Shown: piece after piece, positions 1,710 to 54,924 of the stretch
How positions within the stretch are numbered: the stretch's first letter is position 1
Layout of the letters: each line of letters starts with the position of its first letter
Virus record (IMG/VR): IMGVR_UViG_3300032093_000174
Location: 1-55,093 of that record
DNA length: 55,093 nucleotides
DNA from: a virus
Lineage: Duplodnaviria > Caudoviricetes
Strand: one strand, 5' to 3'
The notes under the pieces: model-generated
What the model saw: only the letters and a program-made list of their open reading frames with translations
What the model was told of the DNA's origin: nothing
Database searches by the model: none
Translations under genes and position numbers: made by a program

Positions 1710-1818
1710 CGCCCTGCTCACCCTCGCCCTACTGCTCGCCCTCGGCGCAGCGGTTGAGCTGTGCATCAAGGCGACCTTCGTGCGCCTGCTGCCGTTGCTG
1801 CTGAGGATGTCCAAGTGA
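1702..1818 (+). CDS. 38-aa hydrophobic/membrane peptide (MLNALLTLALLLALG…)
   Basis: GGAGGG upstream; overlaps both neighbours. Confidence 0.55.
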   Translation: MLNALLTLALLLALGAAVELCIKATFVRLLPLLLRMSK

Positions 1819-2045
1819 CCCAAGAGCCTGATTTTCGCGCATTATGCGCCAAACTCATGGACCGATGGACCAAAGGAAAAGACTACTGGTCTGTCCTAGC
1901 TCAAATCCAAAGCGCACTAGCTTATGATCCTCGTAACGACGACGACTACGACTCCTACGAATACGCTACAGAACCTATTCCCTATGACACAACATGGGCG
2001 AAAACAAACCCCCCTGACGATGGAGGAATGGAAGGAACTGTATGA
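1815..2045 (+). CDS. hypothetical protein (FRALCA family)
   Basis: GTG start overlapping previous stop; followed by terminator. Confidence 0.6.
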   Translation: MTQEPDFRALCAKLMDRWTKGKDYWSVLAQIQSALAYDPRNDDDYDSYEYATEPIPYDTTWAKTNPPDDGGMEGTV

Positions 2046-2090
2046 ATGGTACGTTTACATTCTGTATCGAAACGCTGTTGATTATTAACC

Positions 2091-2112
2091 AAGGGCCGCA
2101 AGGCCCTTTTTT
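2091..2112 (+). terminator. intrinsic terminator
   Basis: AAGGGCC-GCAA-GGCCCTT followed by T run. Confidence 0.85.
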
Positions 2113-2140
2113 CTTGTCTAATCACACCCCGCCTATTGCA

Positions 2141-2171
2141 AAACAAAAGAAAAGAGGAGCTTTCGCTCCTC
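2141..2171 (-). terminator. intrinsic terminator (minus strand)
   Basis: Minus strand GAGGAGC-GAAA-GCTCCTC-TTTTCTTTT. Confidence 0.75.
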
Positions 2172-2345
2172 CTTCTTTACAAGCCTCCGATGAGCTTCTT
2201 TTCTTGGCGCATCTTCAACCAAGAGAATGGAAACCTCACTCGCCCAATGCGCGATGGAGGCCCTTGCGGAATCCTCCTTTCCATTCAAACCCGTCCACCC
2301 TCGCGGCTCAAAGAGGAGGTTGTTACGCCTCAGGACCGACTTGCT
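2145..2345 (-). ncRNA. candidate ~200-nt structured ncRNA
   Basis: Extended -10 TGCTATGCT at 2359-2351, multibranch pairing including a perfect 9-bp helix, own terminator. Confidence 0.55.
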
Positions 2346-2466
2346 TGGAAAGCATAGCACCTTCTGCGTCGAAACAGGCCATTGGCAATGGAAGGGGGAA
2401 ATGTGGTACGGTGAACACTGTCAGGAGGCGACTCCCTGACCCTCGCTATTTACTTTCTCTTTACAC

Positions 2467-2826
2467 ATGCTTCGTTTCTTTTCCATCGCTTCCATTGCTC
2501 TCAGCGCCTTGGCGCCCCTTGCAGTGGAGGCTAAATCCTCGTGCGGACTTGCCTCTCACTATGGTCGTGGAGATGGCTTCGCTTGGCGCACAATGGCCAA
2601 CGGCCAGCCCATGAATCCAAACGCTCTAACCACTGCCCATCGCACGCTGCCACTTGGCTCCAGGATCATCGTCACAAATCCGGCCAATGGGAAAAGCGTG
2701 AGGGTGACAGTTACGGACAGAGGTCCGTTCCACGGCGATAGGCGGCTCGATCTCAGCCATGGCGCCTTTAGTCATGTGGCGGAAGCCTCACAAGGTGTTG
2801 CTAGGCTTTGCTTCTCGTTGGCATAA
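2467..2826 (+). CDS. rlpA: RlpA-like (double-psi beta-barrel) lytic transglycosylase with signal peptide
   Basis: ASHYG…ANG…LTTAHRTLPLGS…VTN…NGKSV…DRGPF…RRLDLS motifs. Confidence 0.85.
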   Translation: MLRFFSIASIALSALAPLAVEAKSSCGLASHYGRGDGFAWRTMANGQPMNPNALTTAHRTLPLGSRIIVTNPANGKSVRVTVTDRGPFHGDRRLDLSHGAFSHVAEASQGVARLCFSLA

Positions 2827-7715: not shown

Positions 7716-7766
7716 TTGACCTGCTACGGGGCCAGGCCCTTTAATGGGCTCACTGGCGAGAGCCAG
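7716..7766 (+). promoter_or_regulatory. promoter with 5' GNRA hairpin
   Basis: TTGACC-18-TTTAAT; CTGGC-GAGA-GCCAG. Confidence 0.65.
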
Positions 7767-7785
7767 CCCTCCACCCCCAAAGCTC

Positions 7786-9492
7786 ATGACCGCTTCCAAC
7801 CTGCCCAAAGCTGCCCTGGCCATCCTGGCCCTGCCGGGCGTCCAGTCCCTTGAGCGCGAGCCTGACGGCTGGTGCTGCCATCTGCACTACGGCTGGACGA
7901 CTGACGCCCTTAGTGGGGGCGGCACTATCATCGATTCAAACCTGGCCACAATCAGGGCCTACGTGAGGGGGGCCTATGTGATGCCAGCCCCTGCCCCTGC
8001 TGCAGTCCCTGCCCCCCATCCCTGCAGCGCTGAGGCCGTGGCCGACGACCTGCTATGGGCTTTGGATCAGCTTCGCTCAGAGCCTGAGCCTGCCCCTGCC
8101 CGTGGCCCCCTGCTGCCCGGCGAGACTGCCGCCCCTGCAGCCCCTGCCCCTGCAGGCCCTGCCCCTGAGCTGCCTGCCTTTGTCACCTGCCAGCAGCAGC
8201 AGCAGCAGCCGCAGCAGGGGGGCGAGTGGCGCCACCCTGCCCGTGGTGGCCGTGTGGCCTGGGATGAACCGGGAGAGTCTGCTGCAGCCCTGGCAGCCCT
8301 GCCCCCTCTGCCCCCTCTGCCCCCTGCCCCTGCTGCAGCCCCTGCCCCTGCTGCAGCCCCTGCCCGTCAGGCCGTGGCCCCTGGCCCCCTGGCCCGTAGC
8401 GTGGCCCCTGCCCGCTTACCTGCAGACGTGGCAGCTCTGCTGGCCCGATTTGGCCTTACGCTTGAAGGTCTTCTGACCGTGGGGGCCTCAAACGCCAAAC
8501 TCGCAAAGGGGGCGGCCCTGGCCTGGCCCGTGATCCTGCACCATCTGCCAGCAAAGGCCCTGGCTCAGGCCGTGGCAGGCCCTGCCCCTGGCAGCACTGC
8601 CCCCCGTAGTCGCATCCCTGGCCTGCAGGCCCTGGCAGAACGCGAGGGGGTGCTGGCCCTGGCCATGGCCCATAACGGCTGCCCCTGGGCATCTCAGGGC
8701 TGCGCGGCAGGCTGTCTGGCCTGGGCTGGCCATGGCGGCATGTCGGTGACCGTGGCAGCAGCCCGTGCCCGTAGGACTCTGGCGATGCTGGCAGGGGGGC
8801 CCGTCTACACCCGCGCCATCCTTTGGGCTCTGGCCCGTGCTTACCGGCAGGCTCAGGCCAAAGGGCTGCCCCTGGCTTACAGACTGCGCGGTACTGATGA
8901 TCTGCACTGGCATCTGGCCCGCCTCACTATCACCCCTGCAGAGGCTCAGAGCCTGGCCCGTCGCTATGGGTTGCCCGTGGCTCCCGGTGAGGGGATCACG
9001 CTTACTGAGGCCCTGGCCCTGGCCCCTGCTGGCACCATCCGCCCCTACGACTACAGCGCAGCCCCCGTGGATGGCCCTTTCGGCCTCAAGGCTCAAAGGT
9101 CAGCGGGCATCGATACGACCTGCAGCCTCAAGGCTGACCGGCAGGGGGGCGTCGACGTGGCGATACAGGCAGTCGCCGCAGGGTTCCGCGTGGCCGTGCC
9201 CGTGGCCCTGGCAAAGGGCCAGCCCTTGCCCGCCGTGCTGATCCTTGAAACCGGAGCCCAGGCCGTCGACCTGGCCTGTATCGATGGCGACACGTCCGAT
9301 CACCGATGGGCTGACCCGCAAGGGCCAGGCCTGGCAGGGGGCTGTGATGGCGTGGCCGTCATCCTGCGCACAAAGAGCAGCAGGGGCAAAGGGCCAGAGG
9401 CTGATGCATTCTCCCTGCAGCCTGTGATGGGCGTCTGGCAGCCCCTGGCAGGGGGCGGCCGGGCCATGCTCCGGGCTGAACCCTGGGCTTGA
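7786..9492 (+). CDS. Gp88-family protein with long Pro/Ala-rich N-terminal extension
   Basis: LLT…NAKLAK, CPWAS.GC..GCL..AG.G, RARRT, RLRGTDDL.W, YDYS and IDGD.SD.RW.DP motifs. Confidence 0.75.
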   Translation: MTASNLPKAALAILALPGVQSLEREPDGWCCHLHYGWTTDALSGGGTIIDSNLATIRAYVRGAYVMPAPAPAAVPAPHPCSAEAVADDLLWALDQLRSEPEPAPARGPLLPGETAAPAAPAPAGPAPELPAFVTCQQQQQQPQQGGEWRHPARGGRVAWDEPGESAAALAALPPLPPLPPAPAAAPAPAAAPARQAVAPGPLARSVAPARLPADVAALLARFGLTLEGLLTVGASNAKLAKGAALAWPVILHHLPAKALAQAVAGPAPGSTAPRSRIPGLQALAEREGVLALAMAHNGCPWASQGCAAGCLAWAGHGGMSVTVAAARARRTLAMLAGGPVYTRAILWALARAYRQAQAKGLPLAYRLRGTDDLHWHLARLTITPAEAQSLARRYGLPVAPGEGITLTEALALAPAGTIRPYDYSAAPVDGPFGLKAQRSAGIDTTCSLKADRQGGVDVAIQAVAAGFRVAVPVALAKGQPLPAVLILETGAQAVDLACIDGDTSDHRWADPQGPGLAGGCDGVAVILRTKSSRGKGPEADAFSLQPVMGVWQPLAGGGRAMLRAEPWA

Positions 9493-15070: not shown

Positions 15071-15269
15071 GACGTTTGACACGCCCATTCGTTGTAAATG
15101 GAACGCGCCCATTCATAATTTGTTGAAAGCCATTGATAATCACACCGAACTATTTCTTCTCCATGGAGACCCTTGGCATGCCGAAAAGGCAGCAGAACTC
15201 AGGGCTTATGTTCACGAACTAAAAACTTGGATCCACAAAGAAGAGCAAAATACCCTCAGCCAGATTTGA
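15057..15269 (+). CDS. hypothetical phage protein
   Basis: 70-aa ORF overlapping the previous gene. Confidence 0.65.
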   Translation: MSERRTFDTPIRCKWNAPIHNLLKAIDNHTELFLLHGDPWHAEKAAELRAYVHELKTWIHKEEQNTLSQI

Positions 15270-15324
15270 ACTGGCACTTGGCAGATTTTAAATCTGCGGC
15301 CTCTTCCGTTTGGGCTATGAGGGC
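15251..15324 (-). tRNA. trnL: tRNA-Leu(UAA), short variable loop, CCA not encoded
   Basis: Acceptor GCCCTCA/TGAGGGT plus A73; GCAGA-TTTAAAA-TCTGC; GCCAG-TTCAAAT-CTGGC. Confidence 0.9.
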
Positions 15325-52744: not shown

Positions 52745-53086
52745 GTGGATCCAGCACGTTACGACATAACTATTCACCAAGGCGCCACTTTTCAAATGGC
52801 CCTGCAATACAAGGACAGTGTTGGCACGCCAGTCAATATGAATGGTTATACCTTGGAGGCTGAGCTATGGAATCGCACTGGCACTGCAAAACTTGCCAAT
52901 TTTGACACTCCATGGACCGTTCAATCCAGTGGCATGTTTAATTTACGGCTTGACAGCACTGTCACGTCTGGCATTACAGAACAAGGACAATACGATTTAA
53001 TGATTACGGAGCCGGGGGGCGATAAATACTACTTACTGCAAGGCACTGCTTATATTGATCTGGGGCTGACTGGGCGAGGGTTGTGA
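52745..53086 (+). CDS. baseplate/fibre-anchor-like small protein
   Basis: [11 protein letters not shown]…P.N..GY…YDL…LLQG. Confidence 0.65.
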
Positions 53087-54924
53087 TGACTGGCAACATT
53101 ACTGTCACGCAAGACAACACGCAACTTGTTATTACAGAAGAGAGCGGCAACGAAGTGGTGGTTCTTGCCGCCAGTTCTCCCTCCATTGCTCTGAGTGGAA
53201 ACGGACCACAGGGCGCAATTGGCGCCACAGGCGCATCTGGCGTGATTGGTGCCACTGGCGCAACAGGCGCTGGTGTGACTGGCGCAACTGGCGTGCAGGG
53301 TGCCACTGGCATTCAAGGAGCCACGGGCGTTACTGGCGCTAGTGGTCCGGTGGGTGCCACTGGAGTGGTGGGCGTTACGGGCGCCACGGGAGCGCAAGGT
53401 GCCACTGGTGTGGGTATCACAGGAGCAACTGGCGTAGTGGGCGTTACAGGCGCCACGGGAGCAACTGGCATTCAAGGGGCCACGGGCCCGGTGGGTATTA
53501 CTGGGGCCACGGGTGCTACCGGCGTGATTGGCGTTAGTGGCGCTACCGGGCCAATTGGCGCCACTGGCGTGATTGGTCCTACTGGTGTGTCAGGCCCCAC
53601 TGGAGCGACCGGCGCTTTGGGTGCTACTGGCGTTCAAGGGGTGACAGGTGCCACGGGAGTAGTGGGCGTGTCTGGTGCCACTGGCCCGGCAGGAATCACA
53701 GGGGCAACTGGCGCAATTGGCGTGTCAGGGGCGACGGGCGCCACTGGAGCGACGGGCGTTACTGGCGCCACGGGCGTTGGTATCACTGGTGCTACTGGTG
53801 CTACTGGCGTTGCTGGCGTGAGTGCTGCAGGTCGCATTTGGTATTTCCGTCAAGCCAATTCCGACATTAGCGGCTACGAATCGTTACAGCCAGACAGGCC
53901 TGATTCAGATCCACAAGATGACATGACTGCCGTGGTGGTTAATACCAGCGGTCAAGTGATCATTGAAGAATTTGCCACTGATGCTGGCGATCCAGGCATC
54001 ACTGAAATTCCCTCTGGCGAGTATGAGTTTCGTTTCTGGAGTTACGTTAGTAGCGCGAGTGGGAGCACCAATCTTGTCTTCAAAGTTTACAAGCGCAACA
54101 CTGGTGGCACTGAAACTCTCCTGTTTGAACTTGATAGCCCCGAGATCGACGCCACAAGTAGCAACTATTACACAGCGCTAAGGGTTCTTGTCAGTCCTCT
54201 CACCATCTCCGATACTGATCGAATTGTTGTAAAAGTTTATGCTGAAACCACTCACACTAGCAATGTCACTGCTCATTTCCTGCATTCAGGCATAACCCCT
54301 AGCAGCATTCGCACTGCCATTGCTCAAGGCTATATCGGCCCGCAAGGGGCGACTGGCGCCACTGGCGTGATTGGTCCCACTGGTGCATCTGGCGTGGTTG
54401 GCGTGAGTGGTGCTACTGGTGCCATTGGCGTGAGTGGTGCTACGGGAGTTATTGGTGTAAGTGGTGCAACAGGGGCCACTGGTGTGCAGGGCGCCACTGG
54501 CGTGATTGGCATTACAGGCGCCACTGGAGTGCAGGGTCCAACGGGTGCCACTGGGGTGGAGGGAGTTACGGGCGCTACTGGGGCTACTGGCGTTATTGGA
54601 GTATCTGGAGCCACTGGGGTGCAGGGGGCGACTGGCGTGGTTGGCGTTACCGGGGCTACTGGTGTGACTGGCGCCACTGGTGTGACTGGCGCCACTGGAG
54701 TGCAAGGTGCCACGGGGGTAGTGGGCGTATCAGGGGCCACTGGTGCGACGGGAGTTGCTGGGGTGACTGGAGCCACTGGGGTGCAGGGGGCGACGGGGCC
54801 AATTGGCATCACGGGCGCCACTGGGGTGGTAGGCGTATCGGGGGCAACAGGGGCTACAGGCCCTGCAAGCGCAACAAGCTACGGCGCCATTCTTGCTATT
54901 CATTACGGCGCAGCAGTGCCCTAA
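53083..54924 (+). CDS. collagen-like (G-X-T) fibre protein with central globular domain
   Basis: Two long G-X-Y tracts dominated by GAT, GVT and GVS. Confidence 0.88.

Follow-up and report, generated by a model that had tools for sequence, protein, structure and literature searches.

The stretch of DNA analysed here, called the window throughout, is the linear 55,093-bp virus record IMGVR_UViG_3300032093_000174 of IMG/VR, with a completeness estimate of 76%. It carries a siphovirus gene set (Phage_portal_3 portal, DUF2213, Major_capside, and a 1761-aa tape-measure protein; Pfam), and its major capsid protein is 84.9% identical to the counterpart in Synechococcus phage S-CBS4, whose host is Synechococcus sp. 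CB0101. Our subject is a predicted structured noncoding RNA (ncRNA) gene on the minus strand, at 2141-2359, which sits in a 354-bp gap flanked by two plus-strand genes. On its terminator side, an upstream 94-aa open reading frame (ORF; 1761-2045, plus strand) ends at a convergent plus-strand terminator (2091-2108). On its promoter side, and divergent from it, lies a gene for a 119-aa RlpA-like secreted protein (2467-2826, plus strand) with a signal peptide and a DPBB_1 domain (Pfam PF03330, E 3e-20; PHROG 'lipoprotein precursor'). The family to which the RNA belongs comprises the window, 77 full or near-full IMG/VR contigs, one truncated contig, and two short contigs from metagenome-assembled genomes (MAGs), with 62 distinct core sequences of 144-206 nt.

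An extended -10 promoter, TGCTATGCT (TGnTAnnnT), is read in the sequence at 2351-2359 on the minus strand, from which transcription would start at about 2344-2346. The same motif is found 5-9 nt upstream of the first base of the closing helix P1 in 60 of the 61 distinct homologues whose upstream DNA extends for 40 nt or more. The predicted primary transcript is about 200 nt long (2141-2346, minus strand), with its ends deduced from the promoter and the terminator, and consists of a core (2179-2344) followed by an intrinsic terminator (2141-2175), in which the stem-loop GAAGGAGGAGC-GAAA-GCUCCUCUUUU at 2150-2175 precedes the U-rich tail UUUUCUUUU. P1 and the terminator are parted by a purine linker. 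When a terminator is defined as a T-run after a hairpin with an energy of -8 kcal/mol or lower, it is present in 56 of the 62 distinct homologues and follows the covariance model at 16-26 nt; four of the six that fail this rule (L045, L046, L049, and L061) have, by eye, a hairpin with an interrupted T-tract, and the other two are L181 and L206.

RNAalifold predicts 37 pairs on a MAFFT alignment of 29 distinct sequences, and the same architecture is obtained in all 32 sequences that were each folded with only P1-P4 and P2c fixed. In the window, where all helices are numbered on the minus strand, the 7-bp closing helix P1 (GCAAGUC at 2344-2338 with GGCUUGU at 2185-2179) forms a three-way junction with P2 and P3; all seven of its pairs are changed on both sides among the homologues, and 99.5% of its cells pair in the structure-blind alignment (A1, below). 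A single unpaired G (2337) separates P1 from P2 (GUCC at 2336-2333 with GGAC at 2296-2293; 99% of cells pair), which closes a four-way junction with the hairpins P2a (2328-2331 with 2316-2319), P2b (2313-2315 with 2307-2309), and P2c (2299-2306), the whole domain spanning 2293-2336. P2c reads CC-GCGA-GG in the window and is an invariant CC-GYRA-GG tetraloop hairpin among the homologues. The stems of P2a and P2b vary in sequence, yet both are formed in 31 of the 32 constrained folds, and L046 is without both. P3 (GGGUUU at 2292-2287 with AAGCUC at 2197-2192) has all five consensus pairs changed on both sides and is paired in 98.6% of cells in A1 and 99.4% across the 62 sequences; it leads on to P4 and P5. 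The 9-bp helix P4 (GAAUGGAAA at 2286-2278 with UUUCCAUUC at 2233-2225), in which all seven modelled pairs are compensatory and in which the top covarying column pairs of an all-column scan are located, defines a domain at 2225-2286. Inside it are P4a (GGAGG at 2277-2273 with CCUCC at 2260-2256, capped by UCC-GCAA-GGG with the GNRA loop GCAA at 2264-2267), P4b (UCGC at 2254-2251 with GCGA at 2243-2240, loop GCAUUGG at 2244-2250; the homologue loop carries GCAUGG), and a conserved GUGAGG strand at 2234-2239 (GYRAGG in the family). The P5 hairpin (UCUUGGU at 2224-2218 with GCCAAGA at 2208-2202) is variable in sequence and length, occupies the same position in the 32 constrained folds, and has only its base modelled in our covariance model, R1. 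Finally, the unpaired junction AUCGGA between P3 and P1 (2191-2186) is invariant in both alignments described below.

This architecture agrees for the most part with a preliminary description of the locus made from the window alone, which had listed the extended -10 element, a CAAGTC/GGCTTG closing helix (now P1), the 9-bp helix with the GGAGG/CCUCC and UCGC/GCGA hairpins inside it (P4, P4a, and P4b), a TCTTGG/CCAAGA hairpin (P5), a GAAA-loop terminator with a U-tract (2175-2150, then the tail), and the convergent terminator of the neighbouring ORF; all of these are found. One helix of that description, TCC.TGAG/CTCA..GGA, is wrong, and the homologues place its nucleotides in P2, P3, and the unpaired AUCGGA instead.

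The support for this fold is comparative. Covariation was scored in A1, a structure-blind MAFFT alignment of 29 sequences, and in A4, a model-fitted alignment of 62 sequences, which for that reason leans towards structure. The results show that 92.9% (A1) and 96.4% (A4) of cells pair, compared to 71.2% and 69.9% in the shuffled controls, and that sliding the 3' partner by 1-3 columns reduces pairing to 42-50% and 40-47%, respectively. Pairs changed on both sides number 29 of 37 in A1 and 32 of 37 in A4, and cells changed on both sides reach 245 against 87 expected (A1) and 584 against 174 expected (A4). The covariation score is 0.639 against 0.246 for shuffles in A1 and 0.726 against 0.221 in A4, and no shuffle matches the observed score in either alignment (0 of 500 each). 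Because 29 of 37 pairs are compensatory and none of 500 shuffles reaches the observed covariation, the element is, on comparative evidence and not on that of one sequence, more than chance. An all-against-all column covariation scan ranks only the modelled helices at its top, returns scattered two-state correlations besides, and reveals no stacked extra helix, pseudoknot, or tertiary pairing.

The same data bear on the strand. The modelled pairs contain 157 G-U cells and only 23 A-C cells, and pairing is 92.9% on the minus strand, while the other strand would pair in 80.3% of cells. Only the minus-strand reading gives tetraloops of the GNRA or UUCG type. Based on the G-U/A-C asymmetry, these loops, the promoter motif, and the terminator, we place the RNA on the minus strand, opposite rlpA. 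A coding reading of the element is rejected. On the RNA strand, each of the three frames is interrupted by stops in most members; in L047 and L052 all six frames are, and six-frame translations of 14 diverged members reach at most 38% identity over at most 49 residues when compared with those of the window. Core length also varies, from 144 to 206 nt. No reading frame is conserved and pairing is, and the objection that the preliminary description had raised against itself, namely that homologues might conserve a frame instead of pairing, therefore falls away.

These observations also bear on the idea that the locus is not an RNA gene but either a DNA-level element, such as an origin, packaging site, or recombination site that folds as single-stranded DNA, or a gene for a small protein. 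In many members, open frames do run across the element on the strand of rlpA (one is the window ORF 2042-2614), and folded DNA would also tolerate G-T pairs. However, no frame is conserved, the translations do not align, the promoter and the U-tract terminator lie at fixed distances, GNRA and UUCG loops are characteristic of RNA, and contigs of the element are present in RNA libraries, so that we regard this idea as extremely unlikely. The preliminary claim that the minus strand encodes a stand-alone structured ncRNA of some 200 nt is borne out by covariation, promoter, terminator, and lack of a conserved frame, and we consider the element almost certainly a real ncRNA gene.

Homologues were collected along several routes. 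Among loci fetched via both flanking proteins, close relatives are 97-98% identical over the intergenic region and distant ones are 67-77% identical in part, and inspection by eye shows altered helix sequences with the pairing kept. Three scans of IMG/VR with DNA patterns built from short conserved motifs (GGTCCT, AGGRTGGAC, ATCGGA, CATGG, and CCGYRAGGGTGG; the third scan without ATCGGA) returned 34 stretches, then 70 (43 new), then 66 (6 new). R1 matches the window at 2173-2349 (145.4 bits, E 6e-33), all 34 stretches of the first scan (105-156 bits), and all 43 new stretches of the second (45-137 bits, the lowest scores coming from members cut by locus ends). The six new stretches of the third scan are one truncated member and five chance matches in GC-rich, coding-like DNA. 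All 77 IMG/VR contigs can be retrieved from the DNA pattern alone. A cultured phage carries the RNA as well: the S-CBS4 member (L178:3093-3290, minus strand; about 64,535-64,732 of the phage record) matches R1 with 73.4 bits (E 2e-17) and fills the unannotated gap between gp092 and gp093, the latter being the 'lipoprotein precursor' rlpA.

Outside phage records, the first pattern gave 107 matches over 185,579 prokaryote species (one genome each), of which only L078 and L104, each matched by R1, are true members; both are short MAG contigs with the same rlpA cassette and, for this reason, are probably phage DNA. The other 105 matches are due to chance, as is the match in Raphidiopsis brookii D9 (L095). 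No match came from 151 sampled genomes of the cyanobacterial class, which as a sample is not proof of absence. A blastn search of 1900-2900 against phage and plasmid collections returned an unrelated 84-nt match or nothing, and R1 has no match in thirteen loci with more distant rlpA-like genes (L012, L018-L029). As far as searched, the RNA is phage-borne, and the family appears so far to be confined to S-CBS4-like siphoviruses of picocyanobacteria.

The family was also compared with known RNAs. Against Rfam 15 (4227 models, among them 6S, Y RNA-like, pRNA, T-box, riboswitch, self-cleaving ribozyme, and cyanobacterial Yfr/Cyano families) at gathering scores, the whole window yields only a tRNA at 15251-15324, 15 loci with diverse members yield nothing, and six further loci yield tRNAs only. 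With E up to 10, the core is unmatched in window 1950-2550 and in eight small loci, where terminator-like weak matches are the only ones; the best of these is ctRNA_p42d on the terminator, with 18-27 bits against a gathering score of 50. The preliminary description had not recognised the family, and cmscan likewise gives no match over the core; the search for homologues and the covariation test that it had proposed give conserved base pairing and not a conserved reading frame. We also considered a T-box leader. The stretch AGGGUGG.AC bears a likeness to what we take to be a T-box sequence, but cmscan gives no T-box match at E up to 10 and there is no downstream aminoacyl-tRNA-related gene, so this candidate is rejected. 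A full-text literature search found no description of the RNA, although supplementary tables of cyanophage genome papers might list it. For a cyanophage of CB0101, a published account of its non-coding RNAs gives abiF, wcaG, manA, and glnA as Rfam families (PMC9964418). In what was searched, the RNA family thus appears uncatalogued, with the window as its founding member here.

One function that the architecture alone could suggest is that of a ribozyme, self-cleaving or other, for phage RNA processing. The compact multi-junction fold, with invariant unpaired AUCGGA, G, GYRAGG, and GCAUGG and tetraloops suited to tertiary docking, would be compatible with catalysis. However, no known self-cleaving class in Rfam matches, the all-against-all scan gives no pseudoknot or tertiary pairing, and the RNA does not form part of a longer transcript in need of processing; we therefore find a ribozyme very improbable.

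The most constant feature of the surroundings is the RlpA-like gene. All 38 loci of the first set have it upstream of the RNA and on the opposite strand, as do 39 of 43 loci of the second set and both MAG contigs; the four remaining second-set loci, with at most 205 nt of upstream DNA, are not assessable. After removal of three twice-counted contigs, rlpA is the divergent neighbour in 76 of 80 contigs, the other four being those that are not assessable. This divergence is kept although neighbouring genes flip orientation or gain insertions. The RNA thus appears, from these arrangements, to be inherited together with the gene for a secreted RlpA-like peptidoglycan-binding or lytic protein as a two-gene cassette with back-to-back promoters, and because the pairing in the cassette is so strict, the two are probably co-expressed or functionally coupled.

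On the rlpA side, a putative promoter, TGGTACGGT (TGnTAnnnT; 2404-2412, plus strand), lies about 45 bp from the -10 of the RNA and faces the opposite way, and it is followed by a conserved, covarying hairpin at the 5' end of the rlpA leader, GTCAGGAG-GCGA-CTCCCTGAC (2420-2440, plus strand). Of 61 distinct intergenic regions, 33 have TGnTAnnnT on the rlpA strand, compared to 8.8 expected from shuffles, and 32 of these 33 motifs are followed by a hairpin with a GGCGAC or GGAGAC loop. In most of the S-CBS4-like subfamily, inspection by eye finds GGCACAATGG and a similar hairpin in place of this motif.

A dedicated regulator of rlpA could be built on this layout. The RNA might act through competition or interference between the back-to-back promoters, or might contact the conserved 5' hairpin of rlpA messenger RNA (mRNA) in a short, structure-specific manner, and would in this way time the production of a potentially lytic cell-wall enzyme. 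The adjacency and divergence in every checkable contig, the two extended -10-type promoters only tens of bp apart, and the covarying hairpin with which the rlpA leader opens all speak for it. However, two crude tests find that the RNA has no conserved complementarity to the 5' region of rlpA: at 13 loci, duplex energies have z scores of -0.4 to +1.4 against shuffles, and runs of at least eight pairs at 32 loci are about as frequent as in shuffles and take no consistent position. A fold of 170 nt with four junctions and about 30 conserved unpaired nucleotides far exceeds the needs of known antisense regulators, and since all carriers are related phages, the linkage may partly be inherited synteny. 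On balance, we consider such a dedicated regulator unlikely. Pairing of the recurring purine stretch GAGGGUGG with the pyrimidine-rich signal-peptide codons via G-U is taken as a composition effect.

A different conserved region of about 170 nt was observed beside the rlpA-like genes of two phages with large tRNA arrays (L012:2560-2900 and L018:2600-2960, on the rlpA strand). It is co-oriented with rlpA and located between a terminator-plus-TATAAT/TATATT promoter and the start codon of the rlpA-like gene. Despite differences in sequence, its hairpins keep their pairing (for example, CCGU..ACGG and CCCC..GGGG around a GUUUCA loop), and in these two loci Rfam gives only tRNAs at gathering scores. 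The region is a candidate structured 5' leader.

The terminator side is less uniform. The window ORF 1761-2045 and its homologues form a small ORF with a DPRN..DYD..(Y/F)..EPIP..W motif, with no Pfam or PHROG family match, that adjoins the RNA in most loci; loci of the window type have it convergent with the RNA, and in the L039 group, L047, and S-CBS4 (gp092) it is co-directional. This ORF could be the target of a riboswitch-like RNA, in which the core would be a ligand-sensing aptamer and the terminator an expression platform governing read-through into the DPRN...EPIP ORF, or antisense to it where it is convergent. As in riboswitch aptamers, several helices meet at a junction whose unpaired nucleotides are conserved, GNRA loops are present, and an intrinsic terminator directly follows; the related small ORF is at hand in most loci. 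Unlike in riboswitches, the gene that follows in the window and in most loci is convergent, so there is no same-strand target; a position in the 5' untranslated region of a same-strand gene is not seen in the window and occurs only in the minority of loci named above. Moreover, no Rfam riboswitch family matches, and inspection by eye alone reveals no alternative, anti-terminator pairing between the stable 7-bp P1 and the terminator. We judge a riboswitch-like function quite improbable.

Several further features of these genomes were recorded. Between the window and L003, a mosaic block at about 1850-2550 is 92-100% identical, and identity drops to 47-67% on either side; the block takes in the final part of the upstream ORF, the RNA together with the intergenic region, and some 85 nt at the start of rlpA, and the remainder of the window rlpA has only 67% protein identity to L003, which points to recombination boundaries within the flanking genes. 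In L035 (3400-4290; contig shared with L058), an insertion of about 800 bp lies beside the RNA terminator, with the terminator region partly duplicated on both flanks; its ORF resembles, by eye, an HNH-type endonuclease, and the whole looks like a homing-endonuclease insertion. L002 (2615-2680; contig shared with L043), a relative otherwise 97.6% identical, has about 26 bp extra just beyond the RNA terminator that repeat the terminator 3' half. Elsewhere in the window, the tRNA gene at 15251-15324 (Rfam, 54.3 bits) lies on the minus strand, opposite to most genes. GC content reaches 0.71 at 8001-9000, compared to 0.45-0.60 elsewhere, within a 582-aa ORF (7744-9492) that has a weak GP88 domain match. 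A 613-aa ORF at 53083-54924 (plus strand) with five collagen triple-helix repeat stretches (Pfam E 1e-51) lies beside large tail genes and is likely a tail fibre.

The explanation that we favour is that the locus is an independently transcribed, structured ncRNA gene of about 200 nt (2141-2359, minus strand) whose product acts in trans via its fold. Host RNA polymerase would transcribe the RNA from its own promoter, and P1 together with the terminator would lock both ends of the RNA in helices, giving a stable molecule. The approximately 30 conserved unpaired junction and loop nucleotides and the two GNRA loops may then organise a compact tertiary fold as a functional surface, and because of this surface we propose that the RNA binds a protein or a small ligand in trans during infection and does not act by long antisense pairing. 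The parts of this explanation differ in strength. The gene itself is close to certain, whereas structure-dependent trans action is a plausible proposal that falls a little short of probable; blending the two, we hold the explanation as a whole to be somewhat probable.

RNA data are available from three metatranscriptome runs that a word-index search found to contain small shares of the stretch, and their contigs were placed on 1700-2900, where contig-free parts prove nothing. Runs X2 and X3 each have one contig, of 151 and 159 nt, lying wholly inside 2183-2333 and 2175-2333, respectively, and each one letter off the window with the same C-to-U variant as in L003. This weakly hints at a short RNA spanning roughly 2175-2333.

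A number of points weigh against the favoured explanation. The contigs from RNA libraries give no strand or ends, DNA carry-over is possible, X2 and X3 may come from one campaign, and the contigs of run X1 lie on flanking genes only, none of them on the RNA. The transcript, its ends, and its strand are predicted. Folded as a single sequence, the minus strand of the window has a minimum free energy of -77.4 kcal/mol (z = -1.38), and 17 of 200 shuffles fold as well; the plus strand gives z = -2.22. Single-sequence folding is uninformative here and, taken alone, misleading on the strand. For most members, the search patterns themselves impose some of the 'invariant' motifs, a bias that is only partly controlled: members reached via neighbouring proteins (L006, L007, L016, L017, L034-L036, and S-CBS4) carry the imposed motifs with small variants, and the scan without ATCGGA re-found 60 known members, all with AUCGGA, and no member lacking it. 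Apart from those of P2 and P2c, two helices with hardly any variation, the helix statistics are independent of the imposed motifs. As to function, we infer trans action from the architecture; a cis or local regulatory role would account at least equally well for the absolute linkage to rlpA; and in the L039 group, L047, and S-CBS4, where a same-strand small ORF follows the terminator, the RNA may serve as a leader or riboswitch.

Complex multi-junction RNAs with many conserved unpaired nucleotides are rare, and those that have been solved are usually ribozymes, riboswitches, or the cores of ribonucleoproteins. The comparative support for the present one is unusually clean, with 62 distinct sequences and compensatory changes in nearly every helix, and its function is directly testable, since one carrier, S-CBS4, can be cultured on Synechococcus sp. 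CB0101. S-CBS4-like cyanophages are common in lake and estuary viromes, and the RNA annotates an 'empty' intergenic region of about 350 bp in at least 80 contigs and offers Rfam a new family. Solving it may also explain why cyanophages carry rlpA, a widespread and unexplained cyanophage gene. A bolder possibility, to which we give only limited credence, is that the RNA is the core of a new phage ribonucleoprotein, or a ligand-sensing RNA, tied to the secreted RlpA-like enzyme, in a fold-dependent trans-acting class without known counterpart. If so, such a ribonucleoprotein or sensor might, for example, determine when envelope remodelling, lysis, or superinfection exclusion takes place in cyanobacteria, and the leader of L012 and L018 would point to general RNA-based control of phage rlpA genes.

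Known systems resemble the RNA in part. Type I toxin-antitoxin loci such as tisB/istR-1 are divergently transcribed pairs of a small RNA and its target, in which the toxin is a short hydrophobic peptide. The present RNA likewise has its own promoter and terminator and points away from a gene whose product is possibly harmful to the cell envelope, but it has no conserved complementarity to the mRNA of its neighbour and is far more structured, and the neighbour encodes a 119-aa secreted DPBB protein and not a short hydrophobic peptide. Another partly similar system is the pRNA of phi29, a phage-encoded, independently transcribed RNA of about 170-200 nt with helical junctions, which acts via its fold with a protein partner and not by antisense pairing. 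Our RNA is also phage-encoded, of similar size, and, as predicted from its sequence, independently transcribed and built of helical junctions; unlike pRNA, to which cmscan with the whole library finds no homology, it is carried by a cyanosiphovirus and not a phi29-like podovirus, and it neighbours rlpA with no link to packaging genes. Rfam also holds orphan structured RNA motifs of phages and cyanophages, namely PhotoRC-I/II, wcaG, manA, glnA, abiF, GOLLD, and ROOL. The RNA described here resembles them in being phage-borne, recognised via structure and covariation, found in aquatic metagenomes, and without assigned function at discovery; it differs from them in having no Rfam match, in being a stand-alone gene with its own promoter and terminator rather than a 5' leader, and in its strict pairing with a divergent rlpA-like gene.

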